Origin: Patescibacteria group bacterium
GTDB lineage: Bacteria; Patescibacteriota; Microgenomatia; UBA12405
Assembly: GCA_018902845.1 (NCBI GenBank)
Contig: JAHIPV010000009.1
Location: 8,950 to 72,949, forward strand
Direction: 5' to 3'
DNA: 64,000 bases
Part shown: piece by piece, positions 1-54,330 of the stretch
Position numbering within the stretch: position 1 is the first letter of the stretch
Layout of the letters: the number at the start of each line of letters is the position of its first letter
Position numbers and translations under genes: made by a program
Notes under the pieces: model-generated
Seen by the model: the letters and a program-made list of their open reading frames with translations, nothing else
Databases searched by the model: none
What the model was told of the DNA's origin: nothing

Positions 1-425
1 ATGGTAATGAATAAATATAAAAACGGATTAAAAATTTTATATTGTAAAGAAAAAAGAAAAAAATAAATTGTTTTGATAGTATGACCAGAAGGGAAAGAAC
101 CGGTATCGTACCAGGACTGAACCAGGCCTTTGGGAAGTTTCATTTGCCCCCCTGCGGGTGACTGCGCTGGTGCTTGTTTTTGATACATTGGCCGTTTCCA
201 GTATGTTTTGTTTTTTAGAAACTTTTCTATAAATTCAGCCAAAACAGTTGCCAGTAAAATTTGCCAAAAAGTGTTGGCGTCTTTTTTGATAAGTAAAAAA
301 GAAATAAAAAATAGAAAAATCCAAATTAAATAGTTGAGAATGACAATGAGATTTTGGCCGAATTTAGAAGAATTAAGTTTTTCAAAAAAATCGGTTTTTG
401 ATTGCCAAAAAAAAATGTTTTTCAC
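1..425 (-). CDS. PAP2-family phosphatase (runs off the window edge), with a palindromic insert
   Basis: Manual translation from GTG at 425: ...WKRPMYQKQ-APAQSPAGGQ-MKLPKGLVQSWYDTGSFPSGHT; RP and SFPSGH are PAP2 motifs. Confidence 0.8.
   Translation of the reverse strand, partial: MKNIFFWQSKTDFFEKLNSSKFGQNLIVILNYLIWIFLFFISFLLIKKDANTFWQILLATVLAEFIEKFLKNKTYWKRPMYQKQAPAQSPAGGQMKLPKGLVQSWYDTGSFPSGHTIKTIYFFLFSLQYKIFNPFLYLFIT
146..169. repeat. Short hairpin repeat CCCCCTGCGGGTGACTGCGC, in frame in PAP2
   Basis: Near-identical copies at 20875, 23928 and 53043. Confidence 0.85.
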
Positions 426-433
426 TGGAGTTT

Positions 434-2089
434 TTATTTTATAAAAATTAAATATTGAGTTGAAGTGTTATCTTTTGAAATATCGCTTGCTTCAGAAGCT
501 TGGCTATTTTTGTAATCATTAAAAGTATAAGGTGTTTGATCAGTTTTTGAAATTATTGAATAATCTGAATAATCGTTTGTTGTAACGTATATGACTTGAC
601 CGGAAAGAGTTTTTGTGTAATCGGTTTGTTCGAGTTTCTGCCTGTGTAAATTTGGTATAAAATATTGAAGAGAATCATTGATTGAAACAAATTCTTTATG
701 AGCTTTATCTGTAAAATATAAAGTTTTATATTTGTTTTTTGGATCGATGGCTAATATTTTTTCTAATTTTTTTATAAAATTAAAATGAAGAGTTTGTTGG
801 CCTGAAAGCTTGGTGTTTAAATACTGGTTTTGATAGATATAGCCTGTAGATAAAAAAAAGATTAAGTAAGCACAAAGAATTTTTATTATATATTTATTTT
901 TAGTTATTTTTAATTTTTTTAATATTATTACAAAATTAGTGAAAAGAATGGGAAAAATAATTAGAGCGCGATGCAGACGATAATCAACTCCATAATAGCA
1001 ATAGCCGCGAGATATAACAGCAATAACCAAGACAGCAATTGCCCAAAGAGAGGCGAGACTATTTTGCCAAAAAAGGAAAAGTGGGGATAAAATTAAAAAA
1101 ATAAAGATAAAATTGAATACCGGTGAAACAAAATTTATCCCCATGGTTTGAAAAATAAGATGTTTAAAAGCCAATAGAAGGTCACTTGTTAATTCTGTAA
1201 TGTTTTTATCTCCGGTAATCTGAATGTCATTTCTAAATCCTAGAGAAATTAAAAAAAGAAGGAGAGATGAAATAAACAAAAAAATGAAAAAATATTTTTG
1301 TTTTTTATTGATGTTTTTATTAAAAAATAAACAGAAAATAATCATTAAGGAAAAAAAGAAAAGAGATAGGCTTGGTGTGTAAGAAAAAATGAGATAGTAG
1401 AGAATAAAAGCAAAAAGAAAAAGAGGGGTATTTTTTTTATCTTTTATATAATGAAGAAATAATCCACTAATTATAAGGGCAAAAGAAAAAGGGAAAATGC
1501 TCTGTTCAAAACTAAAAAGAAGACGGTTAAAAAAGTCAATGTGAAAAAAGGAGCTTAAAATTAATGCACCGACAAGATCGCCAAAAAGAGAAAAATTAAA
1601 ATATTTTAATATTGCTGAGGAGAAAATGATAAGACCTAAAATAAAATATAAAGCTCCCCCGGTATGAAGATTAATTAGGCTACGTCCAAAGAATAAAGAT
1701 GGTAAGGTCGGTAAAAAATATTGACGAGCAGGATAACCAAAAAGACAGGTTTGACGAAAACCTTTGTCCGGTGATTGTTCAATATGATTAAGAGCGCAGG
1801 CAATTTCTTGAGGGGTTTCTCCGCTTAGGTTTGTTGCTAAAGGAATATTTTTAAAAATAATAAAAAGCAAGAAAATAATTAAGGCTGAAGTAAAAATACT
1901 TTTTTTCTTTGGAATATAAAGGATAATTTCCCAAAAGCATTTACAGGCAAAAATAGCTACATAGAGATAAGAAAAAAACCATAAATAAGTTCCAAATTTG
2001 CCAAAAGGTAAAAATTTTATAGAAAAAATATCGATTATGACCAGTAAAATAAAAGTTAGATAACCGGTAGAAAGATATAGCTTTTTCAC
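434..2089 (-). CDS. Multi-pass membrane protein, probable GT-C-like glycosyltransferase
   Basis: 551 aa, many hydrophobic helices, glycan-locus context. Confidence 0.55.
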   Translation of the reverse strand: MKKLYLSTGYLTFILLVIIDIFSIKFLPFGKFGTYLWFFSYLYVAIFACKCFWEIILYIPKKKSIFTSALIIFLLFIIFKNIPLATNLSGETPQEIACALNHIEQSPDKGFRQTCLFGYPARQYFLPTLPSLFFGRSLINLHTGGALYFILGLIIFSSAILKYFNFSLFGDLVGALILSSFFHIDFFNRLLFSFEQSIFPFSFALIISGLFLHYIKDKKNTPLFLFAFILYYLIFSYTPSLSLFFFSLMIIFCLFFNKNINKKQKYFFIFLFISSLLLFLISLGFRNDIQITGDKNITELTSDLLLAFKHLIFQTMGINFVSPVFNFIFIFLILSPLFLFWQNSLASLWAIAVLVIAVISRGYCYYGVDYRLHRALIIFPILFTNFVIILKKLKITKNKYIIKILCAYLIFFLSTGYIYQNQYLNTKLSGQQTLHFNFIKKLEKILAIDPKNKYKTLYFTDKAHKEFVSINDSLQYFIPNLHRQKLEQTDYTKTLSGQVIYVTTNDYSDYSIISKTDQTPYTFNDYKNSQASEASDISKDNTSTQYLIFIK

Positions 2090-2107
2090 TAGTCAAGTAT
2101 ACTAGAT

Positions 2108-3334
2108 GTGATGAAAAGGATTTTGATTTCTTGTACTTATTATGAACCAAATATTTCTGGAGTGACTGTATACGCCAGAATTTTGGCTGAAAAGATGGTT
2201 GGTGAAGGCTTTGACATAACCGTATTAAGTTCCAGATTTCAAAAAAACTTGGCAAAACAAAAAACAAAAAATGGAGTGAAAATAAAAAGATCTAGGGTAC
2301 TGTTTAGACTGAGCAAGGGTGTTTTTATGCCATTTTTCTGGCTGGATGCAATAAAAGAAGTTAAAAAAACGGATATTGTCAATTGTCATTTGCCACAAGT
2401 GGAATCTTTTATTTTGGCCATATTGGCAAAAATTTTTAAAAAAAGATTAATAGTAACGCATCATTGTGAATTTGGAATTGATGGGCTTTGGCACAATAAA
2501 ATAATCGGCTTAGTCACCTACCCTTTTCATTTTTTAACTTACTTATTAGCTGACAAAATCGTTTCTTATACAAAAGATTACGCTTATGTCTCAATTTTTT
2601 TGAGATTTTTTAAGAAAAAACTTATTTTTGTTTTACCACCGGCAGTGGTGGGAAAAGAAAATAAATTAAAAATCAAAGAGATCCTTCGGTCGCTAGAGCT
2701 TCCTTGGGATGACGGCGAGAGCGTCATTCTGAGCGGAAGCGAAGAATCCCAAATGAAATGCTTAACTCCCACGGGATCCCTCGACTTCGCTCGGGATGAC
2801 AGTGTCAAAATAATCGGATATGTGGGTAGAATTGGGTGGGAGAAAGGGCTAAATTTTTTGATTATGGCATGTAAAAAAATTAACGAAAAAAGAAAAGTCA
2901 AACTAGTATTGGTAGGGCCATATGAAAATGTGGCCGGAGATGGGAGTTATAAAAAATTAAGAGGATTAATCAAAAAAAATAAAGACTTGGTGGTTTTGCT
3001 TGGAGCAATAGACCATGAGGATTTGGCTAATTTTTATAAAACTTGTGATTGCTTGGTTTTGCCAAGCACTAATAATTTGGAAACTTTTGGGATTGTACAA
3101 ATTGAGGCGATGGTGTCGGGATGCGGTGTAGTGGCGTCTGATTTACCTGGGGTAAGAATGCCGGTTAAATTAACCGGAATGGGAAAAATTGCAAAAATTG
3201 GGGATAGCAATGATCTGGCAAAAAAAATAGAACAAGTTTTGGAGAGTAAGTACAGCAAAAAACAGATTAAAAAAGCTAGGGAGATTTTTAGTTCGGAAAG
3301 ATTTATTAAAGAATATAAAAAGATTTTCTGGTAA
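2108..3334 (+). CDS. Glycosyltransferase family 4 with a ~42-aa repeat-derived insert
   Basis: YVGRIGWEKG and LPSTNNLETFGIVQIEAM motifs. Confidence 0.9.
   Translation: MMKRILISCTYYEPNISGVTVYARILAEKMVGEGFDITVLSSRFQKNLAKQKTKNGVKIKRSRVLFRLSKGVFMPFFWLDAIKEVKKTDIVNCHLPQVESFILAILAKIFKKRLIVTHHCEFGIDGLWHNKIIGLVTYPFHFLTYLLADKIVSYTKDYAYVSIFLRFFKKKLIFVLPPAVVGKENKLKIKEILRSLELPWDDGESVILSGSEESQMKCLTPTGSLDFARDDSVKIIGYVGRIGWEKGLNFLIMACKKINEKRKVKLVLVGPYENVAGDGSYKKLRGLIKKNKDLVVLLGAIDHEDLANFYKTCDCLVLPSTNNLETFGIVQIEAMVSGCGVVASDLPGVRMPVKLTGMGKIAKIGDSNDLAKKIEQVLESKYSKKQIKKAREIFSSERFIKEYKKIFW
2677..2802. repeat. Composite GTCAT/ATGAC palindromic element, in frame in GT4
   Basis: gatccttcgg...gggatgac, cgtcattctgagcggaagcgaagaatc, gggatccctcgacttcgctcgggatgac. 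Confidence 0.9.
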
Positions 3335-3344
3335 AATTGAGTAT

Positions 3345-3576: not shown

Positions 3577-3582
3577 ATTAAT

Positions 3583-4235: not shown

Positions 4236-5029
4236 TTCTTTGTTGCAAATAAAAAGCCTATGTTATTGTGAATTGGGTTTGGGTGAGTTTTGATTTTAAA
4301 ACCATTTTTACTAAAAGTATTGATTAAATCTTTAAGCTTGTTTGTGGGATTAAATAAATGATATTCCATGATAATATTTTCGATTTTTTGATAAGTTTCT
4401 TTGTTTAAATTAAGAAAAATATCAAATTCGGCGCCTTCACAATCACATTTAAGCAAATTACAAGTTTTGATTTTGTTAACTTGAAAATATTTTGATAATG
4501 GCATTGATTTTACTCTCTCTCTCTCTCTCTCTCTCTCGATTCCGACTTCTTGAATTGTCCTCGTGTTTAGAAAGTTGGAACTGTTTATATTCAGAGTTAT
4601 ATTATTATTTGTGGCAATGGCAAGATTGTTTGTAAAAATATTTTTTATTTTATTTTGAGTTATATTTTTTTGTAAAAGTTTACATGATTCAAAGAAAGGT
4701 TCAATTGCATAAATTGTATTAGATTTAGATTTTTTGGCGGCAAAAATTGAAAAATCCCCCACTCCCGCCCCTATGTCAATTATTATCCAGTTTTTTTTAA
4801 TTTTTATTCCAAAAACTTCATAATCTTTTTTTAGATAAGTCTCTGTTAAAACCCACAAATCCATTATGTTTCGCAGTTGGAATTTTGTTTTGTCTTTTAA
4901 AACAATGGTCGTGTTTTTGCTTGTATGAAAAATTTGATTAAAAAATAATTTTGATAGAGAAAAAGTCGGATGTTTAATGTTTGTAAACAAAACAAATAAA
5001 GTTTGAAGATAATAAAATATTTTTTTCAT
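4232..5029 (-). CDS. FkbM-family methyltransferase containing a (GA)n tract
   Basis: IDIGAGVG and LKCDCEGAE motifs. Confidence 0.9.
   Translation of the reverse strand: MKKIFYYLQTLFVLFTNIKHPTFSLSKLFFNQIFHTSKNTTIVLKDKTKFQLRNIMDLWVLTETYLKKDYEVFGIKIKKNWIIIDIGAGVGDFSIFAAKKSKSNTIYAIEPFFESCKLLQKNITQNKIKNIFTNNLAIATNNNITLNINSSNFLNTRTIQEVGIERERERERVKSMPLSKYFQVNKIKTCNLLKCDCEGAEFDIFLNLNKETYQKIENIIMEYHLFNPTNKLKDLINTFSKNGFKIKTHPNPIHNNIGFLFATKN
4513..4537. repeat. (CT)12C dinucleotide microsatellite encoding ERERERER
   Basis: Read directly. Confidence 0.95.
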
Positions 5030-6936
5030 TTTTTCTTAAAAATTAAAACTTTGGGGTGGTCGTAGACGGTGAAGGCTTCTTCGGATGTGTCGTCGCGGAT
5101 GTAAATACCGGGGTATAGGCATTGGCTATCAATAGTAAACCATTTATTTGTTTTTTCTTTGTAAGGAAAATTGGTGGGGCCGAAATAATAACATTTTTTT
5201 AAAAATGGCAGGTTTATCCCTGGGTAAGAATTAATTTCTATTAATTTTGTAAAACTTAATTTTTCATCAAAGAGGTTTTGGTAAAATTTTGATGTTTGGG
5301 GATATTTGTTTGGTACTGGCGGGATGGAACCCCAAAGACGATTTGATGACATGATCATATAATCGGCATTATTTATAATTGGACTTAATCTTTGCCATTT
5401 TTCTGGTGTGTCTGGATCGTAAAGCGATAGCATTTGACCACTGTAACTGCTGGCAGTTTGTTTTGGTAAGTTTAATGGAAGAGGATCGTCCCAATATTCA
5501 TTTGTAATTAAGGATTCAATGGGAATATTTTTGTAAATCCAGTTTGATGCCTGAACGCGGGAATGAGGGCGGGAATAGATAGATAGAAAAGAAATGCAAA
5601 ATATAAAATGGAAAATAAAAGTAGTAAAAATGAATTTTAAATTAGAGGTTGGCTTGATAGCGAGCAAACATATAAATGGGTAGATTGGTAAAAAATAACG
5701 CATAGTAGTGACAAATTGAGAGCCCTGAAAAAAGAAAAGAAGGATAATCCAAGCCAACAAGAGAAAAACAATAGGATTGTGATTTTTTAAGATTTTGAGT
5801 TTTGTTCCAAAATCAGTGGTTATAAGATTCCTCGACTTCGCTCGGAATGACACGATTGTTTTGAGAGTGAAACTGATAATTTTAAAAAGTGAAATGAAAA
5901 ATAGGATTGATAGAGGTAAACCAATGCCCCAGAAAACAAGATTTTTTAGGGGGAAAAGAATGGGAGTTTTACTTAGCCATTGAACGGCTGGTGGAAACCA
6001 AGCATCTGGATCATTAAACGACTGAAGTGTTTTTAAATTGTCAATAAACTGAGGGTTGGGTTTGATAAGGGAAACAAAAGCGTATGGCTGAACAAGACGA
6101 AAAACAAGAAAAGTAGTTAGCAAAAAGTAAGATCCGAGAAAAATTAACTTGATTAAACGAATGATATTAAAAAAGTTTTTGGTTTTAAAAAAATAAAACA
6201 AAAAGAATAAAGCAATAACTGGAGAAAAAAGAAGAGCAGAAATTTTAGATGCCATGGCAAGACCAAAAAAAATTGGCGAGAGAAGTAAACTCCAGCTCTG
6301 CTGGAGACCTCGAACAAGTCGAGAGATCCCTCGACTACGCTCGGGATGACAGTTTCTTTTTGTTAGCCAGTGAGATAATAGTGTAAAAGTGGCGAAAATA
6401 AAGAAGTTTAAGAAAGTGTCAACGGCAAAAAAATGAGAGAGCTGAATTGGAAAAATACAGGTTGCGTAGAAAAGGCTGGGAAGAAAATATAATAACGGCC
6501 AGGTGTTTTTTGACTTGGGTGAGGTTTTGTTGCGACTGTATAATGGTTGTTTCTTGAAAATTAACTTTGAAATAAGATACAAGGAAAAAATGTTTAGGGA
6601 ATCAAAAAAAGCTGAAAGTGCGCGACCCAGAAAGTGAATTTTACCGTAAGAATCGAGATTTAGTATGGTGGCTAAATATTTTGTCAAAAAAATAGGAAAG
6701 GTGCCATAAACAAAAAACTGATATTCTTTATAGTTGTATGGATTTAGCGGAGAGATATTAGTATTTAGGTATTGTGTAAAGGAAATCGGAAGTTTTATTC
6801 TTTCGGTTACCATGGTCAAAAATCTTTCGTCTGGGTGGAGATGCTGATCGTTGTCCCAATTAATACCGTAAAGACGAAGAGACAAGGCAAAGAGGAAGAT
6901 AAGGATTAAAATTATTTTGTTTTTATGATTTTTCAT
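5026..6936 (-). CDS. GT-C (ArnT/PMT-like) membrane glycosyltransferase with repeat inserts
   Basis: HLHPDER, YGTFP and VYDHPKV motifs; many TM helices. Confidence 0.8.
   Translation of the reverse strand: MKNHKNKIILILIFLFALSLRLYGINWDNDQHLHPDERFLTMVTERIKLPISFTQYLNTNISPLNPYNYKEYQFFVYGTFPIFLTKYLATILNLDSYGKIHFLGRALSAFFDSLNIFSLYLISKLIFKKQPLYSRNKTSPKSKNTWPLLYFLPSLFYATCIFPIQLSHFFAVDTFLNFFIFATFTLLSHWLTKRNCHPERSRGISRLVRGLQQSWSLLLSPIFFGLAMASKISALLFSPVIALFFLFYFFKTKNFFNIIRLIKLIFLGSYFLLTTFLVFRLVQPYAFVSLIKPNPQFIDNLKTLQSFNDPDAWFPPAVQWLSKTPILFPLKNLVFWGIGLPLSILFFISLFKIISFTLKTIVSFRAKSRNLITTDFGTKLKILKNHNPIVFLLLAWIILLFFFQGSQFVTTMRYFLPIYPFICLLAIKPTSNLKFIFTTFIFHFIFCISFLSIYSRPHSRVQASNWIYKNIPIESLITNEYWDDPLPLNLPKQTASSYSGQMLSLYDPDTPEKWQRLSPIINNADYMIMSSNRLWGSIPPVPNKYPQTSKFYQNLFDEKLSFTKLIEINSYPGINLPFLKKCYYFGPTNFPYKEKTNKWFTIDSQCLYPGIYIRDDTSEEAFTVYDHPKVLIFKKK
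5825..5853. repeat. Solo palindromic element, in frame (VSFRAKSRNL)
   Basis: agattcctcgacttcgctcggaatgac. Confidence 0.9.
6304..6352. repeat. Solo palindromic element, in frame (CHPERSRGISRLVRGL)
   Basis: tcgaacaagtcgagagatccctcgactacgctcgggatgac; sibling at 53216. Confidence 0.9.
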
Positions 6937-8660
6937 AAAATTAAGTCTTCTATTTCTTCTTTTGATAAATAATTTTGTTTTTTGTAAATTCTTATAACAG
7001 GATGATCAAATACGGAAAAGGTTTCTTCGGCATTTTCATCTGATAAAAGGAACGGAAAAACTGAAAACTGTTTTAATTTTTCAAATCCCAGTTTACCAGA
7101 AAAAAGAGTTTGGTAATATTTCTGAGAGTATGGAAAAAGGGATCCTTCTCCCGCCACGGCGGGATCAGGATGACGACGGTATTGGTTTTTGAAGATACGG
7201 CGGGATGGTATAAGTATGTAATCACTCTGATGAATCTGTTCTACTAACAGTTTTGGTGAATCAGGATCGCTGTCCAAATTGTAAAAATCAAAATTGTGTA
7301 CGTCTAACTGATGCTGATTAACCGGTACGTTTATAACATTGCCGGCTTCAGAAAGAATTTTTGTATGAGGCAAGAGGTTATTTTTAAGCCAATCAGAGGC
7401 AGTTATGCGAATATCTGGTTTTAAATAAATTGAAAAAAATATAATTCCGGGTAATATTGAAAAAATGATTAATATTTTTGATAAAAATTTGTATTTTTTG
7501 ATCTGTTGAAAAAAAACGATTGATAAAAAAGGAAAAACAAAAAAAATCGGAGACATGAAACGAGACCATTTGGTGTAAAGAAAAGAATTGTAAAAAAAAT
7601 AGACAAGAGCAGGAATGAGAACGACTAGCCAGTTAATTAATGTGTCATCCCGCTTAGCGGGACGTGGTGATCTCGTAGGAAATGTAAAAGATGTGGTTGT
7701 AACTCCGGCGGGATTGCCACGTCGTAAAACTCCTCGCAATGACAGAATTGCTCCAATTATTGCAAATAGCAATACAGGCGGGCCGACGGCGTAGGGGAAA
7801 ATTTTGGTAAATTGAAAAAGAATTGGTGTGGAGTTTAAAAACTGGTTAGTGTAGAACATTTTAGTTTTTCCCATAGCAACAGAGGTTTCATAATTTAAGG
7901 TTGATCTAAAATCAGGTCCGGCAATAAGGTTGAATGGAGAAAAAATTATGAAAAATAGAGTGCTATTGAGTAAAAGAAAAGAAGTGAGAAGAAGTAGGTA
8001 ATTTTTTTTATTTTTTTTAAAAAAAGCAAAAAAAATAGACAAAAGCATTGGACCAAGAAAAAAAAGAGAAGTGATTTTTGAAGCCAAGCCAATACCGGTG
8101 ATAATCGAGGATAAAAATATACTTACCAGAGATTGATTTTGATAAAAATTGAGAGCCAAAAATATGTTTATGGCGAAAACGAAAATAAGCAAGGATTCGG
8201 TGGTACCAAAATGAGCTAATTGTATTAAGGCCGGTGTAAAAATTAAAAATAAAAGCAATAAAACACTTTGTTTAAATGAAAAAAATAATTTTTTGGAAAT
8301 TAAATAAAAAATGAAAACTGAAATTGAAGAAAAAAGAGATGAATAAAACCTCAGCATCAAAACAGAGTTAATAAAATTATTTGGTAGTTTTAATGAATAA
8401 AGAGTGAAAAAAGCCAGATAGAGAGGAAATTGACCATAAGCAAAAAAATGAGGGTTTAAGTCCGTTATTTTTAATTTTGATATAGCAGTGGCCATATTGT
8501 TTTCATCCGGATGAAAAAAATAAGAATCCGCCCAATCAAGTTTATAAAAACGAGTGAGGATAGTAAGAAAAAAGAGAAAAAAGATTAAAAATGTTTTTTT
8601 TGAGAAAAACGCTTCGCTAGATTTTTGGGGCTGTTTTTTAAATAACATAGATAATAGCAA
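6933..8660 (-). CDS. GT-C (ArnT/PMT-like) membrane glycosyltransferase with repeat inserts
   Basis: FHPDE, AYGQFP and VFDHP motifs; paralog of the neighbouring gene. Confidence 0.8.
   Translation of the reverse strand: MLLSMLFKKQPQKSSEAFFSKKTFLIFFLFFLTILTRFYKLDWADSYFFHPDENNMATAISKLKITDLNPHFFAYGQFPLYLAFFTLYSLKLPNNFINSVLMLRFYSSLFSSISVFIFYLISKKLFFSFKQSVLLLLFLIFTPALIQLAHFGTTESLLIFVFAINIFLALNFYQNQSLVSIFLSSIITGIGLASKITSLFFLGPMLLSIFFAFFKKNKKNYLLLLTSFLLLNSTLFFIIFSPFNLIAGPDFRSTLNYETSVAMGKTKMFYTNQFLNSTPILFQFTKIFPYAVGPPVLLFAIIGAILSLRGVLRRGNPAGVTTTSFTFPTRSPRPAKRDDTLINWLVVLIPALVYFFYNSFLYTKWSRFMSPIFFVFPFLSIVFFQQIKKYKFLSKILIIFSILPGIIFFSIYLKPDIRITASDWLKNNLLPHTKILSEAGNVINVPVNQHQLDVHNFDFYNLDSDPDSPKLLVEQIHQSDYILIPSRRIFKNQYRRHPDPAVAGEGSLFPYSQKYYQTLFSGKLGFEKLKQFSVFPFLLSDENAEETFSVFDHPVIRIYKKQNYLSKEEIEDLIL
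7139..7175. repeat. Solo palindromic element, in frame (RHPDPAVAGEGS)
   Basis: ggatccttctcccgccacggcgggatcaggatgacg. Confidence 0.9.
7642..7745. repeat. Paired palindromic element, in frame (SLRGVLRRGNP...PAKRDD)
   Basis: gtcatcccgcttagcggga...gggattgccacgtcgtaaaactcctcgcaatgac. Confidence 0.9.
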
Positions 8661-9574: not shown

Positions 9575-10417
9575 TTACAATAATATCAGAAGTCCTAGCA
9601 AGGAAACAATGGATCCAAATATCATTAAGCCCTTGGTGGGGAAGTCAACACCAGCATCGGGTAGAACTATTCTGGTTGGACTTGGACCTTGGGCTATATA
9701 GACAGGTGTATCGGTTGGTCTTGGAGTGCTGGTTGGCTGTGGAGTTCCTGTGGGGGTATTGGTGGGTGTGTTGGTTGGAGTATTAGTGGGTGTGTTAGTG
9801 GGCGTATTGGTTGGAGTGCTGGTAGGAGCGGTACAGCAAGTAAGGTAAGAAGGGTTGATAATACAAGCATCTTCAAATTGAGACATAGCACAGTAAGAGT
9901 TACCGTCATCAGTATCGATACAAATTAGACCAGATTGACAAGGATTAGACGAATCGTCGCAGGGAGTATAGCCACAGGCATTTGGTTCTGGAGTTGGGGT
10001 GTTGGTTGGAGTATTAGTGGGTGTGTTAGTGGGCGTATTGGTTGGAGTGCTGGTTGGGGCGGTACAACAAGTGATATAGGAAGGGTTGATAATACAAGTG
10101 TCTTCAAATTGAGACATAGCACAGTAAGAGTTGCCATCATCAGCATCGATACAAATTAGACCAGATTGACAAGGATTGGATGAATCATCGCAGGGAGTGT
10201 AACCACAAGCATTTGGCTTTGGAGTTGGAGCGACTACGGTAAAGTTTAAACTACAGGGCAGAGGTGCTTCTTGAGCCTGCGGTCTTTCCGGTACAGTTGG
10301 CTTAACTTCTTCCTGGCTAATTTGTTTTAGCCGTTGAGCAGTCAAAATTGCCACACCGGCCAGAATAATGGTGCTAATCAGGCTAATAATGATGGTTAAT
10401 TTTTTCTTTTTATTCAT
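9575..10417 (-). CDS. Secreted/anchored T/P-rich protein with two 8-Cys modules and an LPDAG + TM tail
   Basis: Start moved to ATG 10417 (MNKKKK plus hydrophobic helix). Confidence 0.75.
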   Translation of the reverse strand: MNKKKKLTIIISLISTIILAGVAILTAQRLKQISQEEVKPTVPERPQAQEAPLPCSLNFTVVAPTPKPNACGYTPCDDSSNPCQSGLICIDADDGNSYCAMSQFEDTCIINPSYITCCTAPTSTPTNTPTNTPTNTPTNTPTPEPNACGYTPCDDSSNPCQSGLICIDTDDGNSYCAMSQFEDACIINPSYLTCCTAPTSTPTNTPTNTPTNTPTNTPTNTPTGTPQPTSTPRPTDTPVYIAQGPSPTRIVLPDAGVDFPTKGLMIFGSIVSLLGLLILL

Positions 10418-10950
10418 AATTATTGGGCTGCCCCCCAGGTGGTACAGTTGCCTTCCTTGCAAACACGGCATTGGACACTATAGGCACCAGGAATATCAAT
10501 AGTGATTGATTGAGAATCAGCCATCCAGTGGTCAGCGCCGGCATAATCAGCAAAACGTAAACTTGTAACAACCCAAGGAATATTATTGTAGTCTCCGGCA
10601 TCAATGTTATAGCGGAAGTCGAACCGATCGGGACCGTAGTTATTGGTGCCAGTATCAACACAAGTAAAATTAACTTCATCACCTAAACTCGGAGTACCAG
10701 ACGGATCCATGGTGATGTCAACACAAGCAAGTTCAGGTAGTGGTGTTGGCGTGGGGGTGTTAGTTGGAGTGCTGGTGGGAGCGGTACAACAAGTGATATA
10801 GGAAGGGTTGATAATACAAGCGTCTTCAAATTGAGACATAGAGCAGTATGAATTGCCATTATCAGCATCGACACAAATTAGACCAGGCTGACAAGGACTG
10901 GATGAATCATCGCAGGGAGTATAGCCACAGGCATTTGGTTCTGGAGTTGG
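9770..10950. repeat. Three copies of a ~200-bp Cys-rich module plus PTNT tandem repeats, shared by two genes
   Basis: PNACGYTPCDDSS.PCQ.GLIC...YC...C...CCTAP occurs twice in one ORF and once in the next. Confidence 0.95.
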
Positions 10951-11946
10951 AATTTGTGTAGGAGTATTGGTGGGGGTGGGAGTGGGAGTTCTGGTGGGGG
11001 TGGGAGTTAAGGTAGGGGTGCTGACTCTGGTTGGAGTAGGTGTTGGGATTCTGGTGGGGGTAGGAGTAGTAAGTGTGATGGTTTCAGTACAAACAGAGTT
11101 TGCCTGAGACGGCCAAGAATCGTTTGAAACAGCTGGATTTTTTACAACAACAGAGATATTAGTTCCGTTTAGATTGGCTATATTTGTAAATGTGTGAGTA
11201 GCGGTACAGATAATTTTTTTGGCTCTAGGATCATGACCCATAATTGCCCATGATTGAGTGGTACCGGTAGATGAATCGGGTTGGCAAGTTGATGTAATTC
11301 CTTCGTCTCCGGAAGTCATTGTGGTTGAACCCGATAAGGCAAACTTAAATTTAACTGCACTGCTATTCATAATAATTGAGGCGCAACCTTCGCCATGTGG
11401 ATCACTGATATCACTAGGACAAGCTAGTTTGCTTGTCGCCGGCAATTCACTATAACCTGTTGCTGTTATTGTCAAATTTTCTCCATCAATACGATATTGA
11501 ACATCGATACAATCGTCACAATTTGTGTCATTGTTTCTGTATAAACTGGCGGCACCGTAACCGCTATAAAATTGGTCTTTTTGAAGGGAAGAACATTTAA
11601 CGGGATAATTACCGTAGACATCGGTTGCTTCTCCGCCAACCTGACATGATCCTGGTGGTCCAAAATTTGGACCTCCTAGCGGAGGACTATTTTCACCGTC
11701 TTTTTTTATTCTAGTAATTGAATAGAAATTTGAAGTTTCTCTGCCACAAGGGCCAGAGATATTTCCATTGCACCAGAAACACCAATCCCAGTATTGATCC
11801 AAGGCAACATCGTATGCTTTGTCACGAATATCCTGTTTCTGTTTGACTAAAACAACGCCAGCGACTAGAGATAAGAATAAAAAAAATACCGACAGGACAG
11901 GATATAATTTTTCTGCTGATTTAAATTTTTCGAGTATTTTGGCCAT
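10420..11946 (-). CDS. Cys-rich surface protein with N-terminal membrane anchor and PT linkers
   Basis: 508 aa; TM helix followed by QDIRDKA. Confidence 0.75.
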   Translation of the reverse strand: MAKILEKFKSAEKLYPVLSVFFLFLSLVAGVVLVKQKQDIRDKAYDVALDQYWDWCFWCNGNISGPCGRETSNFYSITRIKKDGENSPPLGGPNFGPPGSCQVGGEATDVYGNYPVKCSSLQKDQFYSGYGAASLYRNNDTNCDDCIDVQYRIDGENLTITATGYSELPATSKLACPSDISDPHGEGCASIIMNSSAVKFKFALSGSTTMTSGDEGITSTCQPDSSTGTTQSWAIMGHDPRAKKIICTATHTFTNIANLNGTNISVVVKNPAVSNDSWPSQANSVCTETITLTTPTPTRIPTPTPTRVSTPTLTPTPTRTPTPTPTNTPTQIPTPEPNACGYTPCDDSSSPCQPGLICVDADNGNSYCSMSQFEDACIINPSYITCCTAPTSTPTNTPTPTPLPELACVDITMDPSGTPSLGDEVNFTCVDTGTNNYGPDRFDFRYNIDAGDYNNIPWVVTSLRFADYAGADHWMADSQSITIDIPGAYSVQCRVCKEGNCTTWGAAQ

Positions 11947-12005
11947 ACTAATAATAGTTTTTTAGATATTTTAATCTTAGATTAATATTTTTTTTAATGC
12001 AAATG

Positions 12006-19596: not shown

Positions 19597-19674
19597 ATGA
19601 AATGAAGGATCCCGTTGGAGTATAACTAATCTCTTTGGGATTCTTCTCCCGCCAAAGGCGGGATCAGAATGACG
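19586..19674. repeat. Paired palindromic element that supplies the TatD stop codon
   Basis: cgtcatccTGAatgaaatgaaggatcc...cagaatgacg. Confidence 0.9.
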
Positions 19675-21012: not shown

Positions 21013-21167
21013 TTGTCATTCCGACTCCTTCGACTCCGCTCAGGATAAATTCCATGGAGGAATCTCTGAACTTGTTTCAGAAATCCCGCTGTGGCGGGAT
21101 ACCTCAGACAAGCTGAGAGATCCCTCGACTTCGCTCGGGATGACAAGTGCTTCGCTGGCAATGACAA
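21013..21167. repeat. Nested composite palindromic element, intergenic
   Basis: Shares a long internal segment with 44463-44572. Confidence 0.9.
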
Positions 21168-30072: not shown

Positions 30073-30221
30073 GGGATCCTTCTCCCCCTGCGGGTGATCA
30101 GGATGACGGATAGCAAGCGTCATTCTGAGCGAGAGCGAAGAATCTCAAAGTAAGTTTTGAATTCTATGGGATCCTTCTCCCCCTGCGGGTGATCAGGATG
30201 ACGGGTGATTCGCAATGACAG
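30073..30221. repeat. Cluster of palindromic elements with two identical ~37-bp right arms
   Basis: gggatccttctccccctgcgggtgatcaggatgacgg at 30073 and 30168. Confidence 0.9.
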
Positions 30222-37529: not shown

Positions 37530-37990
37530 GGTAAGGTGGTGGCACTTTGAAAGTGATAGGAGTAAGTTCTGCCTGTCAGATCAAAGCTAATTTTAACAGT
37601 AGGGTGATTTGCGGAAGGACCAAAATGAGTAAAGGTAAGATTTTTGACTTGAACCAAGCTGTCGGTGAGTTTAAAAGTTTGGCCATCTTCGGTTTTTTCT
37701 AAGGCATTGTCGTCGTCTAATTGATAAGTAGTGGCGCCGGCGTTGAGAAAAAGATAGTCGTCACTCTCCCCAATAGTTGGGTAATTTACAGAATTGGCTT
37801 TTTTGACTGTTTGGTGAAAATCAAAAAGAATTCTTTGTCCATTAGTGTAAATTTCAGCCCGAGCTAATTGATTAACTCTCTGTATGGTGATTTGAGAGTA
37901 AAAAGAGTAAAGAGCTACCATGATCGTTACTAACAGGGCAGAGTAGATTATCATTTCGATGATGGTAGTACCTTTGTTTTTATAGCTCAT
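37526..37990 (-). CDS. Minor pilin
   Basis: KG|TTIIEMII prepilin motif. Confidence 0.85.
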   Translation of the reverse strand: MSYKNKGTTIIEMIIYSALLVTIMVALYSFYSQITIQRVNQLARAEIYTNGQRILFDFHQTVKKANSVNYPTIGESDDYLFLNAGATTYQLDDDNALEKTEDGQTFKLTDSLVQVKNLTFTHFGPSANHPTVKISFDLTGRTYSYHFQSATTLP

Positions 37991-44462: not shown

Positions 44463-44572
44463 TTGTCATTCCGACCGAAGTGGAGGAATCCCTGAATTTA
44501 TTTCAGAAATCCCGCCATAGGCGGGATACCTCAGACAAGCTGAGAGATCCTTCGGCTACGCTCAGGATGACG
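44463..44572. repeat. Paired composite element that supplies the stop codon of the receiver gene
   Basis: ORF 44562..44930 ends PSS* inside the element. Confidence 0.9.
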
Positions 44573-45176: not shown

Positions 45177-45179
45177 TAA

Positions 45180-49820: not shown

Positions 49821-49838
49821 ATATTTAAAATTTAAAAA

Positions 49839-50106
49839 ACGCTTCGCTAGATCCTTCGATCGTAAAACTCACTCAGGATGACGAAATTTTGTCATTGCGA
49901 GGATCCGCTAGCTGGCGGAGACGTGGCAATCCCCGCCTGCAACGCTGTAGCAACTGCGGGCAGGCCGTTGGGATTTTGATCACGTTTTTTTACATTTCCG
50001 ACGGGATCACCACGTCACTTCGTTCCTCGTGATGACAGCGGCTTGTCATTGCTACGTCTACGGGCGACCGCAAGGGTCGCCCCTACAAAGGGTCGGCAAT
50101 GACAGC
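49839..50106. repeat. Large cluster of nested palindromic elements of several families
   Basis: Includes GTCAT pairs, cctgcaacgctgtagcaactgcgggcagg and gggcgaccgcaagggtcgcccctac. Confidence 0.92.
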
Positions 50107-51249
50107 TTAAAAAGGGGAAAGCCGGCGGAGGTCTTTGATTATTTTTGGTAAAACTTTGATTAAATAATTAATTTCTTTTTTGGTAGTCCAACGACCAAAA
50201 CTGATTCTTATTGATCCGTGAGTTTGAGAAGGTTTCAGTCCACAAGCAAGAAGGACGTGAGAAGGTTTTAAATTATTTGAAGAACAGGCAGAACCGGTTG
50301 AAACAGCGATTCCCAGCTGATCAAGTTTTAACAAAATTGATTCGCCTTCAACGTTATCGAAACGAAAACTGGCAATGTTTGGGAGAGAGAATTTGAGATG
50401 GCCATTAAGATGAGAATTGGGAATTTTTTTGAGAATATTTTTTATAAGATGATGGCGGAGTTTGAACAATCTTTGGGATTCTGAAACAAGTTCAGAATGA
50501 CGAATGGTTGCTGTTTTGGCAAAGGCCGAAACAAGAGGAAGATTTACAGTTGAAGACCTTAAGGTATTTTCGTGACCGCCACCGTGTAAAAGTGGGGTAA
50601 TATTGGTTCCTTTTTTGATATAAAGCAGGGCAATTCCTTTGGGGCCATAAACTTTGTGAGATGAAGCTGTCAAAAGATCAATATTCATTTTTTTTACATT
50701 TATGGGAATTTTGCCAAAAGTCTGAGAGGCGTCGGTGTGAAAATATATATTAAGTTTGCAACAAATTTTTCCAATTTCTTCTATAGGCTCTATGGTTCCA
50801 ATTTCGTTATTGGCGTGCATGATAGAAACTAAAATTGTCTTTTTGGTGATAGATTTTTTAACATCACTAGGATTAACCCGACCAAATTTATCAACGGGAA
50901 TTTTGGTAATTTTGAATCCTTGAGTTTTTAGCCAATCGGCTGAGTTTAAAATACAGTCATGTTCGATAGAAGAAATGATGATGTGATTGCCTTTGTTTTT
51001 GTTGGCAAAAGCAATGCCCTTTAGAACAGTATTATTTGACTCGGTGGCCGAAGAAGTAAAAATTATCTCCGATGGGTCTGCTTTAATAAATTTGGCTATA
51101 TTTTTGCGATTTTTTTCTAAGATTTTTTTGGCTTTTTGACCAGATTGGTGCAAAGAAGAAGTGTTGGCAAAGTTGGAAAAATATGAAGAAAGGTGTTTTA
51201 TGATAATTGGATCAATTGGGGTGGTGGAAGCGTAATCTAAGTAAATCAT
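50107..51249 (-). CDS. iscS: Cysteine desulfurase
   Basis: YLDYASTTP, SSHKVYGPKG and STGSACSS motifs. Confidence 0.95.
   Translation of the reverse strand: MIYLDYASTTPIDPIIIKHLSSYFSNFANTSSLHQSGQKAKKILEKNRKNIAKFIKADPSEIIFTSSATESNNTVLKGIAFANKNKGNHIIISSIEHDCILNSADWLKTQGFKITKIPVDKFGRVNPSDVKKSITKKTILVSIMHANNEIGTIEPIEEIGKICCKLNIYFHTDASQTFGKIPINVKKMNIDLLTASSHKVYGPKGIALLYIKKGTNITPLLHGGGHENTLRSSTVNLPLVSAFAKTATIRHSELVSESQRLFKLRHHLIKNILKKIPNSHLNGHLKFSLPNIASFRFDNVEGESILLKLDQLGIAVSTGSACSSNNLKPSHVLLACGLKPSQTHGSIRISFGRWTTKKEINYLIKVLPKIIKDLRRLSPF
50475..50502. repeat. Solo element, in frame in IscS (RHSELVSES)
   Basis: gggattctgaaacaagttcagaatgacg. Confidence 0.85.
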
Positions 51250-51623
51250 GCGTCAGCTAGAGTCAATGAATTAAGAGAAGAAAACCAAGTTTTGTAAATT
51301 TTGAACCAAATTTTTTTGGCTTTACAGACTGATTGTTTAGGGCAGATATTTTCCATACAAGCAACCGGAAGAATTTTTTTTTCTAGGGCTTTGATTATTT
51401 GTCCAATTTTTATTTGATTGGCCGGTTTAGACAAAAAATAGCCACCCGTAGTTCCCCTTTTTACTTTTAACAAACCAGCTTTTTTGAGTGTGAGGAAAAT
51501 TTTGGCCAAATAATTTTCCGGAATTTTTTCTTCTTTTGAAATTTTTTTTATAGAAGAAAGTTTATTGTCTTTTAGATAAATCATGGCTATAAGGCCATAA
51601 CGGGTTTTGGTTGATATTTTCAT
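51246..51623 (-). CDS. Rrf2-family regulator (IscR-like)
   Basis: STKTRYGL, RGTTGGY and three Cys. Confidence 0.92.
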   Translation of the reverse strand: MKISTKTRYGLIAMIYLKDNKLSSIKKISKEEKIPENYLAKIFLTLKKAGLLKVKRGTTGGYFLSKPANQIKIGQIIKALEKKILPVACMENICPKQSVCKAKKIWFKIYKTWFSSLNSLTLADA

Positions 51624-51696
51624 ATATTTGAATTACGACTATTTTTGTCAGGATTAGTTTAGCAAAGACGACTGTTTTGGTCAAGTATTGACTGAT

Positions 51697-53178
51697 TTAT
51701 TCTGAAAAAAGTTGGACGGTGTAGATAAAGATTTCTGTTTTAGGATCAAGATAACAGTCTGAGCGCAGACCCATTTTTTGAGAGCAAAGCTGGGAGAGAA
51801 ATTCTTTTTTTGTCCAGCCGGTTTCTGTGGCCACTTGGGGCAAAAAAGTACCGGTACAATTGACATACTTTAGATAAACTCCGTGTTTGCCCATTTTAAT
51901 CTGCTTAATAGAATTAATTTTTTTTAGAGGTGAGAGAATAGAAATTTCTATTTTTATATCTTTTAGCTCTTGTTTTGTTAACGGAGGAAAACGAGGATCA
52001 TGAAAAGCCGAAGCTATGGTCGTTTTGGCTATTGTAGGCAGGAGTGTTCGATTAGCGACAAAACTGCCTATACAGCCTCTTAGTTGGCCATGTTTTTTTA
52101 GAGTAATAAAGATTCCTCTTTTTTTGGAACGTAATAAATTCTTCGAATTTAAACGTTCCTTTGGGGTTTTCCCTGTTTTTGTATAAGTTTCCAGGACTTG
52201 GCGGGAGTAATTTAAAAGAAATTTTTGTTCTTGAGAGGAGAGTTCGTGGGATTTATGTTCCGATGGGATTGCCGCGTCGTTGCGGGCGACCGCAAGGGTC
52301 GCCCCTACAGAAGACTGACTACTGCTCTTGTAAAAAGCGATAGAGGCGTAGCCGACTACCCTGTTTCCGTCCCCTGTTATTTTTCCGGAATTAGTGAGAT
52401 GCAGTAATTTACTTTTATTTATTTTTAAATTCTTGGCTACCAGTAAAGCAACCTCTATAGGTTGGCTGGCACAGGCGAAAGTATCAACATTTGGATAAGT
52501 TTGTTTTAGTTGAGAGAGTGTGTTTACGAATCGTTTGTGTTTAAGAGTCAGAATTGCATCAGTGGTTTTTTTGTCTACAATTTGGGCGGTTTTTTGTTTA
52601 GGATAATGAGAAAGATCGGAGGAAATAATTAAGAGGGTATTGTTGTTCAAATTGTCTGAAATTTTTTGAGCTAGTAATTTAAGATCTTTTTGGCTGGCTT
52701 GGCCGATTAGGATGGGAATGATTTGGAAATTTTTTAATACTTCTTGCAAAAAAGGTAGTTGAACTTCCAAAGAATGTTCTTGTTGATGGGCTTGTTTATC
52801 AACAAAAATGTTTTTGTCTGTAAGCTTGGCAATAAAATTTTTGCTGATTTTGATTTTGCCTAGTGGCGTTTGCCAAAAATCACTGTCATCTATGGCAATT
52901 CCTCTGAAAAAAGCTGAATGACTAACACCTAGAAGAACAATGTGCTTAAAATTATAGTTTTCGATTTGACGAAAGGCATGAGCCGCCACTTGGCCGGAAT
53001 AATCATAGCCGGCGTGAGGGACTATAAGAATTTTGGGGGGCTTCCCCCTCCGGGTGACTGCGCCAAGGCTTGTGTTTTTGATATTAACTTTATTTAAAAA
53101 TTTTTGAATAGTGGAAGAAAGTTTTTTGGCCGAATTGGGATAAAACTGGCCGGCAACAACAGGCTGACGAATTAGCAT
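51697..53178 (-). CDS. AmmeMemoRadiSam protein B (MEMO1-like) fused to protein A (AMMECR1)
   Basis: AGQFYP, PHAGY, EHSLEVQLPFLQ, SSDLSHY and LRGCIG motifs. Confidence 0.93.
   Translation of the reverse strand: MLIRQPVVAGQFYPNSAKKLSSTIQKFLNKVNIKNTSLGAVTRRGKPPKILIVPHAGYDYSGQVAAHAFRQIENYNFKHIVLLGVSHSAFFRGIAIDDSDFWQTPLGKIKISKNFIAKLTDKNIFVDKQAHQQEHSLEVQLPFLQEVLKNFQIIPILIGQASQKDLKLLAQKISDNLNNNTLLIISSDLSHYPKQKTAQIVDKKTTDAILTLKHKRFVNTLSQLKQTYPNVDTFACASQPIEVALLVAKNLKINKSKLLHLTNSGKITGDGNRVVGYASIAFYKSSSQSSVGATLAVARNDAAIPSEHKSHELSSQEQKFLLNYSRQVLETYTKTGKTPKERLNSKNLLRSKKRGIFITLKKHGQLRGCIGSFVANRTLLPTIAKTTIASAFHDPRFPPLTKQELKDIKIEISILSPLKKINSIKQIKMGKHGVYLKYVNCTGTFLPQVATETGWTKKEFLSQLCSQKMGLRSDCYLDPKTEIFIYTVQLFSE
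52264..52310. repeat. GTAG-type REP-like hairpin, in frame in the domain linker (VGATLAVAR)
   Basis: Hairpin identical to the copy at about 50061-50086. Confidence 0.88.
53043..53063. repeat. Short hairpin repeat, in frame (GAVTRRG)
   Basis: ccccctccgggtgactgcgc. Confidence 0.8.
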
Positions 53179-53215
53179 ATGATAATAGTATAGTTGAATT
53201 CTGCAAAGCAGAATA

Positions 53216-53260
53216 TCTCGAACAAGTCGAGAGATCCCTCCGCTTCGGTCGGGATGACAA
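53216..53260. repeat. Solo element in a divergent intergenic region
   Basis: tcgaacaagtcgagagatccctccgcttcggtcgggatgac. Confidence 0.88.
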
Positions 53261-53280
53261 TAATATCTGTATTAAAAAAA

Positions 53281-54330
53281 ATGAAAAAAGCAAAGACATT
53301 GTACAAAAAATTAGATAAGAATACGGTGCAGTGCAGGGCTTGCAATTGGTATTGCAAGATTAAAGAAGGAAATGTGGGGATATGTGGAGTAAGGCAAAAC
53401 AATAGTGGAGAGTTGTGTTTGTTGGTGGATGGAAAAATAATTAGCTTAGCGGTAGATCCGATTGAAAAAAAGCCTTTGTTTCATTTTTTGCCGGCAAGTA
53501 AAACTTTATCTTTTGGAACTTTGGGGTGTAATTTTGGTTGCGCTTTTTGCCAGAATTGGCAACAATCGCAAGGAATAAAGGGGAAATTATGGTTGCTTTT
53601 AAATTATTCAGAGGTCAGGAGATCCCTCGACTTCGCTCGGGATGACAAGACTCCTAAAGAGATTGTAGAAAAAGCCGAGAAATTGGGGTGTGAGTCAATT
53701 GCTTATACCTACAACGAGCCAACGATTTTTGTTGAATATGCTTATGAAACGATGAAGCTGGCAAAAAAGGCGGGTATAAAAAATGTATGGGTGTCTAATG
53801 GATTCATGTCAGATGAGAGTTTTGAGCTAATAAAAGATTTGATTGACGGCATTAATATTGATTTAAAAAGTATAAATAGTGACTTTTATAGAAAAATTTG
53901 TAAAGGAAAATTAGAACCGGTTTTGAAAAATATTAAGAAATTTTATAAGGCTGGAATTTGGATAGAGTTGACTACTATGATAATTGCCGGCGAAAACGAC
54001 TCCCCTGCTGAGTTAAAAAAAATTGCTGAGTTTATTGCTAATCTTTCTTGCGACATTCCTTGGCACGTAACCGCTTTTCATCCTGATTATAAAATGATGG
54101 ACAAAGAAGCTACTAGCTTGGAAAAATTGGAAGAGGCATGGCAAATTGGTAAAAAATCTGGCTTAAAGTATATTTATACCGGCAATGTTTGGGGTGGAAA
54201 AAATTCAACATATTGTGTGGAATGTGGAAATTTGCTAATAGATAGGGGGGATTATGGATCAGGAAAAGTTTTGGGGTTGGCAGATGGAAAATGTGAAGAG
54301 TGTGGCCAGAAAATTAGTGGAGCGTGGTAG
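53281..54330 (+). CDS. amrS: AmmeMemoRadiSam radical SAM enzyme
   Basis: DPIEKKPLFHF, CNFGCAFCQNW and AYTYNEP motifs; start moved to ATG 53281. Confidence 0.93.
   Translation: MKKAKTLYKKLDKNTVQCRACNWYCKIKEGNVGICGVRQNNSGELCLLVDGKIISLAVDPIEKKPLFHFLPASKTLSFGTLGCNFGCAFCQNWQQSQGIKGKLWLLLNYSEVRRSLDFARDDKTPKEIVEKAEKLGCESIAYTYNEPTIFVEYAYETMKLAKKAGIKNVWVSNGFMSDESFELIKDLIDGINIDLKSINSDFYRKICKGKLEPVLKNIKKFYKAGIWIELTTMIIAGENDSPAELKKIAEFIANLSCDIPWHVTAFHPDYKMMDKEATSLEKLEEAWQIGKKSGLKYIYTGNVWGGKNSTYCVECGNLLIDRGDYGSGKVLGLADGKCEECGQKISGAW
53608..53649. repeat. Solo element, in frame (SEVRRSLDFARDD)
   Basis: tcagaggtcaggagatccctcgacttcgctcgggatgac. Confidence 0.9.

Follow-up and report, generated by a model that had tools for sequence, protein, structure and literature searches.

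Tagged hairpin repeats within the genes of a Patescibacteria genome and small nucleases that may mobilise them

The window analysed here is a 64,000-nucleotide stretch of DNA (G000:C5:8950-72949) from a genome, designated G000, of 1.06 Mb in 24 contigs that is 93.5% complete and is the sole representative of its genus in the comparison set; the sequencing runs that contain the window DNA come from groundwater metagenomes. The original prediction, made from the letters of the window, took the host to be a member of the candidate phyla radiation or something like it, and a homolog of its IscS with 88% identity does carry the label Patescibacteria. The subject of this report is a set of short tagged hairpin repeats that occupy many genes of this bacterium without breaking their reading frames, together with the small nucleases that may act on them. 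Three families were catalogued by sequence patterns and merged into one genome-wide list: a CGTC-tagged family, a small-hairpin family, and GTAG-tagged repetitive extragenic palindromic sequences (REPs). The predicted coexistence of several families, among them CGTC- and GTAG-tagged REP-like ones with a likeness to the Rickettsia RPEs, is thus upheld (the names RPE, RAYT and Ssn follow the papers cited below).

Repeat units in the window

The catalogue holds 43 units in the window: 19 wholly within 10 open reading frames (ORFs), 2 at ORF edges and 22 intergenic. Manual reading adds one unit each in a PAP2-like ORF, the alpha subunit gene of an oxidoreductase and a decayed unit in RarA, giving 22 units in 13 ORFs where about 20 elements in about 13 ORFs had been predicted, and all of the peptides then named (CHPERSRGIS, VSFRAKSRNL, RSLDFARDD, VILNECEES, RHSELVSES, SLRGVLRRGN and AQSPAGG) are found in the translations. 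The sites are as follows, with the strand where one is assigned and length changes in amino acids (aa) relative to homologs.

147-181, minus strand: small-hairpin unit with AT-rich conserved flank in the PAP2-like ORF (AQSPAGG); about +10 aa, 3 homologs.
2722-2801: head-to-head CGTC dimer (2722-2747 plus, 2776-2801 minus) in a GT4 gene, 2108-3334; net +24 aa against the 1 scorable homolog, 30% identical.
5827-5852, minus strand: CGTC unit in a GT-C-like gene, 5026-6936 (VSFRAKSRN); net +17 to +32 aa.
6326-6351, minus strand: CGTC unit in the same GT-C-like gene, 5026-6936 (CHPERSRGI); net +15 to +18 aa.
7142-7175, minus strand: CGTC unit with nested small hairpin in a GT-C-like gene, 6933-8660; net +11 aa against 3 of 4 homologs.
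7643-7744: CGTC dimer in GT-C-like gene 6933-8660 (SLRGVLRRGN...PAKRDD); net +17 to +29 aa.
18819-18834: small hairpin near the TatD N-terminus (DLPTGRQ); variable region, modest net gain.
19586-19674: CGTC units spanning the TatD stop codon and the neighbouring intergenic space.
20032-20063, minus strand: CGTC unit that extends FolD at the C-terminus; a 96%-identical relative reads it in a different frame.
20699-20724, minus strand: CGTC unit in FolD (VILNECEES); +15 aa loop insertion, absent from 29/29 homologs; another variant and a 5' scar in the relative's locus L222.
20874-20888, minus strand: small hairpin in FolD (AQSPAGG); about +10 aa loop insertion, absent from 29/29 homologs.
21014-21145: intergenic CGTC dimer with nested hairpins.
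23927-23968, minus strand: small-hairpin unit in 2-oxoacid:acceptor oxidoreductase alpha; +10 aa against the 4 homologs that cover the site.
24552-24657: intergenic CGTC dimer; 5' of one tag a second copy of the head is stacked.
27123-27145, minus strand: decayed CGTC unit in RarA (RHSATAKS); +8 aa against two relatives.
30076-30203: intergenic cluster of three CGTC units.
32923-32948, minus strand: CGTC unit antisense to a methyltransferase gene, 32585-33835.
33575-33608, minus strand: CGTC unit antisense to the same methyltransferase gene, 32585-33835; short tandem duplication on the tag side.
39442-39523, minus strand: two units in the leader region of a pilin-like ORF, 37987-39540, one a small hairpin and the other a CGTC unit whose head is duplicated.
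44464-44572: CGTC dimer with nested hairpin at a gene end.
49851-50086: intergenic mosaic array of three CGTC units and one GTAG REP.
50478-50502, minus strand: CGTC unit in IscS/NifS (RHSELVSES, residues 250-258); equal-length replacement in a predicted helix.
52284-52308, minus strand: GTAG REP in the linker of an AmmeMemoRadiSam B/A fusion (VGATLAVAR); net +12 aa.
53045-53058: small hairpin in AmmeMemoRadiSam B (AVTRRGK); net +8 aa.
53622-53647, minus strand: CGTC unit antisense in the AmmeMemoRadiSam radical SAM gene (RSLDFARDD); net +15 aa.

The methyltransferase (32585-33835) and the pilin-like ORF (37987-39540) have no homolog in the comparison set.

Anatomy and abundance of the repeat families

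Genome-wide there are 374 units, 129 of them inside 75 ORFs and two of these 129 in the gene of a RAYT protein described below. The CGTC family contributes 247 (78 in ORFs, 16 at ORF edges, 153 intergenic), the small-hairpin family 77 (32 in ORFs) and the GTAG REPs 50 (19 in ORFs). Gene calling gave 1102 genes and 89% coding DNA; the in-gene counts are approximate because one or more real ORFs escaped the caller and not all starts are certain, and they are a lower bound because the overlooked ORF, at G000:C21:29368-29468, itself bears an in-frame CGTC dimer.

The usual CGTC unit runs from tag to 5-bp stem, GA, inner hairpin, GA, 5-bp stem and tail. Its tag is an unpaired CGTC or TGTC placed 5' of a stem that begins with AT, and its tail, whose first base is C in 99% of units, is CCC, CTC or CTA, not CCA. 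The outer stem pairs in 237 of 249 units against 57 expected from random pairing, complementarity not having been imposed by the search, and the paired units include at least 8 outer-stem sequence variants. Units are 15-60 bp long, and only dimers come near 100-150 bp; among CGTC pairs within 150 bp, 53 are head-to-head and 10 tail-to-tail. Additional copies of the unit's own head occur in 19 of the 247, either 5' of the unit or inside it, and the sequence common to different copies extends 3' of the hairpin, not 5'. The CGTC scan yields its 247 matches against 0 and 0 in two order-4 Markov shuffles, and the broader patterns yield 175, 32, 6, 184 and 46 against maxima of 2, 0, 0, 7 and 0 over five shuffles. 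A plain-stem model (at least 8 bp) found only 8 matches and was replaced by the bulged one. Four of six folded units were not clearly better than shuffles (z +0.9 to -1.4), and fold energy was excluded as evidence, since standard DNA folding gives GA/GA units no score. The units are imperfect palindromes: of the palindromic elements originally described the repeats are real, but the palindromes are not perfect.

Unit density is uneven by contig, at about 7 per 10 kb on C20 and C5, 0.5 on C8 and 0 on C13 and C22; C20 carries 110 of the 374 units. Assembly artefact, which had been named as a possible refutation, is excluded: a contig from a run not flagged as source covers 50062-52308 with 0 differences, IscS unit included, and close relatives bear units at identical sites.

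In-gene units as insertions

Host proteins were compared with the ORFs of fetched loci, chiefly from two same-family genomes at about 56% mean identity; 71 of the 75 hosts had homologs and the remaining 4 were dropped. The 101 in-gene clusters comprise 76 anchored on both sides, with 22 of the 101 near a terminus; among the 76 scored sites the g0311 insertion is entered twice and the RAYT's own cluster is included. A net gain of at least 5 aa is seen at 68/76 scorable sites and at 24/299 random control sites, whereas the length lies within 2 aa of the homolog at 5/76 and 244/299 respectively; the net change per site ranges from about 0 to 62 aa. Judged by these alignments, most in-gene copies are true in-frame insertions that are lineage-specific. 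The claim of in-frame insertion thus stands for those 68 sites and fails for IscS, where the unit is an equal-length replacement. Alignment to orthologs, one of the checks proposed beforehand, is clearest for FolD, in which both inserts (about +10 and +15 aa), absent from every homolog, fall in predicted-structure loops of reduced confidence.

The hosts (identified, for 57 of those outside the window, by a family scan) include uvrA, uvrB, uvrC, fpg, pheT, a class I (Val-like) synthetase, trmD, miaA, obg, dus, rsmH, nusB and tsaC-tsaE, five ribosomal proteins (units outside the Pfam domains, or at the domain edge for L7/L12) and many glycosyltransferases; by manual tally about 29 of the 75 resemble glycosyltransferases or GT-C-like membrane proteins. 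Two or more units are borne by 39 of the 75. At G000:C20:134994-143739 uvrC, uvrA and uvrB are clustered, each with dimers that add 26 to 47 aa; PMC3733652 notes the identical uvr gene set as host in other phyla.

Orientation of the units relative to replication

Of the 130 single CGTC units, 117 have their tag on the C-rich strand, as do 49 of the 50 GTAG units. Within genes the rule is without exception for single CGTC units (53/53, 37 sense and 16 antisense to the gene), and since the C-rich strand carries only 650 of the 1102 genes, unit orientation follows replication, not transcription. In dimers, where one member of the pair takes the rarer orientation, the tag is on the G-rich strand in 56 of 117 units. 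In G256, a genome of another family, 25 of 27 units are on the C-rich strand, with 8 of the 27 in ORFs (400 kb of a 508-kb contig), and in G182 nearly all units are dimers and hence uninformative on the rule.

The G-rich strand is usually the leading strand, and rRNA genes are as a rule co-directional with replication. In G000 it is the C-rich strand that holds the 16S rRNA gene, dnaA and 4 of 5 ribosomal-protein genes checked, and dnaA is on the C-rich strand in all three of G000, G026 and G029; the skew polarity in this family may be unusual.

Rewriting at existing sites

IscS residues 250-258 are encoded by a CGTC unit, and the segment is of equal length in 120/120 homologs, one of them the window's own protein and another a close relative that bears a unit; distant homologs of mixed lineage served as helix controls. 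The unit retains E253 and E257, present in 114 and 117 of 119 homologs, and lies inside the long helix 237-275 of the predicted model (pLDDT, the model's confidence score, about 88-90). On this predicted structure and alignment the unit replaces host residues rather than adding any. The 88%-identical relative P0001 has another variant, RHSEHSEES, at the site, with altered residues just upstream, a comparison made at protein level only.

The FolD locus is represented by a 96%-identical counterpart, L222. At 20699-20724 L222 carries a different variant in which both stem arms have changed in step, together with a 12-nt deletion that keeps the frame and closely packed substitutions 5' of the tag, the 3' side being identical; 30 of the 70 differences between window and L222 fall within 72 bases that make up this one unit and its 5' flank. 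In the second unit, the C-terminal extension, three changes directly 5' of the tag shift the frame of the extension. These 5' changes agree with the known cut position of SsnA, a few nucleotides upstream of its motif. In RarA a third relative, G010 (genus g11), has an intact unit at the site in another frame, and the decayed unit of the window is likely, from this comparison, an end state that has become ordinary protein sequence. The contigs of relatives from four sequencing runs offered no readable empty sites.

Spread across the class

A strict pattern occurs 119 times in G000; its count in each of 80 same-family genomes is 0-7, and zero in 74 of them. In a survey of 301 genomes of the class 89 have a match, G000 being the highest and the runners-up having 72, 58 and 51; the pattern was built from G000 and hence favours it. 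The counts across family and class mean that blooms of the repeat are patchy and recurrent. The system had been called active, and from sequence it looks recently active.

Candidate partner enzymes and neighbouring features

No cognate transposase had been seen in the window, and none is there; the search of the genome for RAYT or GIY-YIG genes flanked by repeats, suggested at the same time, found one RAYT and two Ssn-like genes elsewhere. G000 encodes nine small stand-alone GIY-YIG genes in addition to UvrC, and one Y1 transposase. Two of the GIY-YIG genes, C20:97992-98267 and C14:18964-19236, are bracketed by CGTC units. Their products are single-domain proteins of about 91 aa, with 41% and 42% identity over 86 aa to a Neisseria gonorrhoeae SsnA homolog flanked by NTS, which served as reference in place of the N. 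meningitidis protein; the homology falls within the SsnA limit of E<1e-10 over >75% of the length and outside the stricter one of 60% identity. Pairwise alignment shows the catalytic Y6, Y17 and E64 positions (numbering of PMC11893778) retained in both.

CGTC repeats lie within about 1.5 kb of 20 of the 29 best Ssn-homolog loci in the class, compared with 1 of 29 FolD loci. A strong Ssn match is found in 19 of the 23 genomes with at least 10 repeat copies, and the strict pattern occurs in 50 of 72 genomes with a strong match (E<=1e-20) against 38 of 228 without; the co-occurrence is given as counts, free of any statistical test, because kin genomes are not independent.

The RAYT gene, at C20:65-583, matches PF01797 at 32.4 bits (cut-off 23) and has the HLH motif and C-terminal Tyr in its sequence. 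GTAG REPs occur within the ORF and also as a tandem array that runs from its 3' end to where the contig stops; none is seen in the 270 bp upstream. In its best homolog from the comparison set, a REP-like peptide is repeated in the loop that corresponds to the one with the RAYT's own in-frame REP.

Five small GIY-YIG genes adjoin tRNA genes (C3:37844-38472, C3:43334-43716, C16:19526-19930, C21:81150-81648 and C15:70745-71232), and four of the five sit between a full tRNA and a fragment of one that is split by a GC-rich hairpin; some hairpins at these loci turn up again as inner loops of CGTC units. The loci resemble minimal tRNA-targeting nuclease-hairpin elements, and the small-hairpin family may have its partners among them. 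At G000:C21:77747-80766 a 408-aa ORF, which we take from its motifs to resemble a reverse transcriptase, is convergent with a small GIY-YIG gene that has long hairpin repeats on its flanks. Within the window itself, adjoining ORFs at 9575-12200 carry tandem repeats of 12 bp, Pro/Thr-rich, as well as blocks of about 260 bp that are duplicated; they likely encode surface proteins and have no relation to the hairpins.

Mechanism and alternatives

The genome-wide count of coding and intergenic copies that had been called for gives 0.14 units per kb of coding DNA and 1.9 per kb of the remaining DNA, a density about 14-fold lower in coding. Units are read in five of the six frames, in keeping with the earlier remark that different frames are used; none of 28 antisense CGTC units is in the TGA-reading frame, and 6 of 50 sense units are in the frame that reads TGA in the commonest variants. 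Coding depletion, five frames and stop-frame avoidance together fit blind insertion plus purifying selection, and they do not support the dedicated peptide-inserting system of the original prediction. The reading preferred here, at a probability of roughly 0.6, is a blind, replication-coupled process of cutting and repair filtered by selection, in which the repeats are selfish targets of small cutters of single-stranded DNA.

By this mechanism Ssn-type GIY-YIG nucleases, for the CGTC family, and the RAYT, for the GTAG family, would act on one strand at the replication fork. The nuclease would bind the folded tagged strand and, by analogy with the biochemistry of Neisseria SsnA, cut a few bases 5' of the tag. 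GIY-YIG proteins have no known joining activity; host repair or recombination would insert the hairpin and a variable 3' tail at new sites, and may also rewrite old sites from other copies. Copies written by repair would account for inserts of ragged length, for the swapping of variants, for the replacement in IscS and for the stacked heads and scars found 5' of the tag. Frame would not be sensed: out-of-frame or stop-bearing copies would be purged, and the survivors, mostly in loops, linkers and termini, would be translated and would slowly decay into ordinary protein sequence, RarA being a probable example. The more specific proposal that Ssn-type GIY-YIG nucleases are the missing mobilisers of the CGTC REPs and related RPEs, cutting at the fork while host repair writes, with codon-for-codon overwriting as in the IscS helix and repeated re-editing of the same site, is put forward tentatively, as having somewhat less than an even chance.

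Several observations weigh against the preferred reading or some part of it. Four of the 23 repeat-rich genomes have no strong Ssn match with this query, and 22 of the 72 genomes with a strong match have no strict-pattern copy. Changes 5' of the tag are seen in only 2 of the 6 CGTC units covered by L222, the four others having none. The conserved flank of the small hairpins is on the opposite side relative to the C-rich strand in 24 of 26, and that family may work by a different route. No switch of GC skew lies near dnaA in G000 (C23:5996), G026 (C7:44431) or G029 (C5:44183), so that dnaA does not anchor the fork polarity of the C-rich strand. Microhomology 3' of the unit, suggested by IscS and FolD, is unsupported as a general insertion rule: identity resumes at medians of 10 aa on the tail side and 10.5 aa on the tag side (p=0.34, n=44), though at about 55% identity the test has little power. 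The search for genes broken by units found none, a result that fits strong selection but frame awareness as well; among the non-ORF units there were 7 candidates, of which C21:29368-29468, when read through, is the intact in-frame ORF already mentioned, and the other six, by homolog coordinates only, resemble neighbouring paralogs, a fusion homolog or a transposase-like region. Finally, the strand bias could arise through loss of one orientation and not through insertion.

The last point, developed in full, is the strongest of the alternatives, though we regard it as unlikely: tagged copies exposed at the fork would be cut at each replication and lost, those in the safe orientation or in dimers would persist, and spread would occur by other means. 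The ambiguous fork polarity in G000 leaves room for this, as does the usual rule, under which the G-rich strand would be leading and the tagged strand not exposed as lagging-strand template. SsnA, moreover, cuts the tagged strand only (PMC11893778). Against it, dimers retain one unit in the rarer orientation (the 56 of 117 noted above), and the placement of 16S rRNA, dnaA and 4 of 5 ribosomal-protein genes hints that the C-rich strand is leading and so the exposed template.

Natural transformation is less probable again. Incoming single-stranded DNA would be cut by Ssn at the repeats and the pieces would recombine, as proposed for NTS in Neisseria, so tuning exchange at surface-glycosylation loci; SsnA reduces transformation with NTS-bearing DNA (PMC11893778), glycosyltransferase- or GT-C-like proteins make up about 29 of the 75 hosts, and 110 of 374 units are on one contig, C20. 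Uptake of either strand, on the other hand, would give no replication-strand rule, and the 93.5%-complete genome has no match to the Competence (ComEC) family, a result not taken as absence.

A domesticated, frame-aware system that adds peptides because they are useful would account for the lack of unit-broken genes, for E253 and E257 in IscS and for the 39 of 75 hosts with two or more units. It is improbable, slightly more so than transformation, in view of the unrelated peptides that five frames produce, the scatter of net lengths from about 0 to 62 aa, the 14-fold depletion in coding DNA and the FolD 3' unit that a relative reads in another frame. Removal of the inserts from RNA, or their skipping in translation to leave normal proteins, might be expected from the essential genes hit (a valS-like synthetase, pheT, trmD and obg) but is very improbable, given that all units keep frame and avoid stop-bearing frames where removal would need neither, that insert boundaries are not fixed, and that excision of the IscS unit would delete nine helix residues.

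Comparison with known systems

The closest published relatives of the CGTC units are the CGTC-1 to CGTC-4 REPs (Di Nocera et al. 2013, PMC3733652). They share the unpaired CGTC/TGTC tag, the stem beginning with AT, the short 3' tail and head-to-head dimers, as well as in-frame genic copies, including in uvrA/B/C, and coexistence with GTAG REPs. They differ in having an 8-9 bp stem and a loop of 4-5 nt, where in the G000 units an outer stem of 5 bp is followed by a GA/GA internal loop and by an inner hairpin that can be swapped. The G000 units thus fall in the superfamily of CGTC-tagged REPs but outside CGTC-1 to CGTC-4 as defined. Intragenic copies number 78 of 247 in G000, compared with 28 listed rows for R. 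conorii, and the host phylum is outside the five named there; that study found no partner enzyme for CGTC REPs.

Such a partner is suggested by the NTS/SRM repeats and SsnA of Neisseria (Chenal et al. 2025, PMC11893778), which are alike in the bracketing of a small GIY-YIG gene by tagged hairpins that occur genome-wide, and in which SsnA cuts a few nucleotides upstream of its motif. The published SRM motif has 0 matches genome-wide in G000 and in 0/247 CGTC units, so that by analogy the CGTC repeats probably work like SRM, yet are not SRM as defined. The intragenic share is 32% of G000 CGTC units and 2% of NTS in N. meningitidis. The text covered raises an origin resembling insertion sequences; mobility, a strand rule and in-gene rewriting are not shown in it. 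Among 12 of the 14 supplements, searched by term, only two Patescibacteria genomes came up, both without ssnA.

RPEs (figures from the later papers PMC1166351 and PMC1779305) are alike in being in-frame palindromic inserts in housekeeping genes of a host-dependent bacterium with a small genome and in their lineage-specific blooms; PheT is hit by both, and two of the RPE families, RPE-4 and RPE-6, belong to the CGTC REPs. Of the 728 RPEs of R. felis, 85 lie in ORFs (PMC1166351), a density of about 57 per Mb; the figures for G000, obtained by different methods, are 129 of 374 and about 121 per Mb. Compared by description, RPEs are 100-150 bp and G000 units 15-60 bp, and the G000 unit in IscS replaces host residues. 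The GTAG REPs with their RAYT resemble the RAYT/TnpA(REP) REPtrons (PMC3733652, PMC3333891) in the GTAG tag, the 8-bp GC-rich stem and one Y1 HUH gene beside tandem REPs, and differ in that 19 of 50 are intragenic, one is inside the RAYT and 49 of 50 have a single orientation relative to replication. Intragenic GTAG REPs are known from about 70 rows for Opitutus terrae (PMC3733652), and IS200/IS605 elements work on the lagging-strand template (PMC3333891).

The literature covered, which lies outside most subscription papers and the original RPE papers, holds no paper on these repeats in Patescibacteria, on a CGTC strand rule or on helix replacement. In-frame palindromic or REP inserts in other bacteria (PMC3733652, PMC1166351) and the Ssn system (PMC11893778) are already published; new here are the highest copy number among the 301 class genomes, a bulged variant missed by the SRM motif, a near-absolute strand rule and the rewriting. 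Because the basic phenomenon was known, the value lies in mechanism and scale. G000 supplies candidate enzymes, cognate substrates that the published motif misses and three footprints (the strand rule, changes 5' of the tag and same-site variant swaps), which reduce the question to a simple assay; the strand rule, overwriting and swaps yield a testable mechanism. The genome also offers a clear natural case of selfish DNA yielding new protein sequence, with FolD showing a fresh insertion, IscS a replaced helix segment and RarA the stage of decay. If Ssn is indeed the mobiliser, the CGTC repeats would form a class of mobile element that is coupled to replication and needs no transposase, and about 7% of the proteins of one bacterium would have been rewritten by it.

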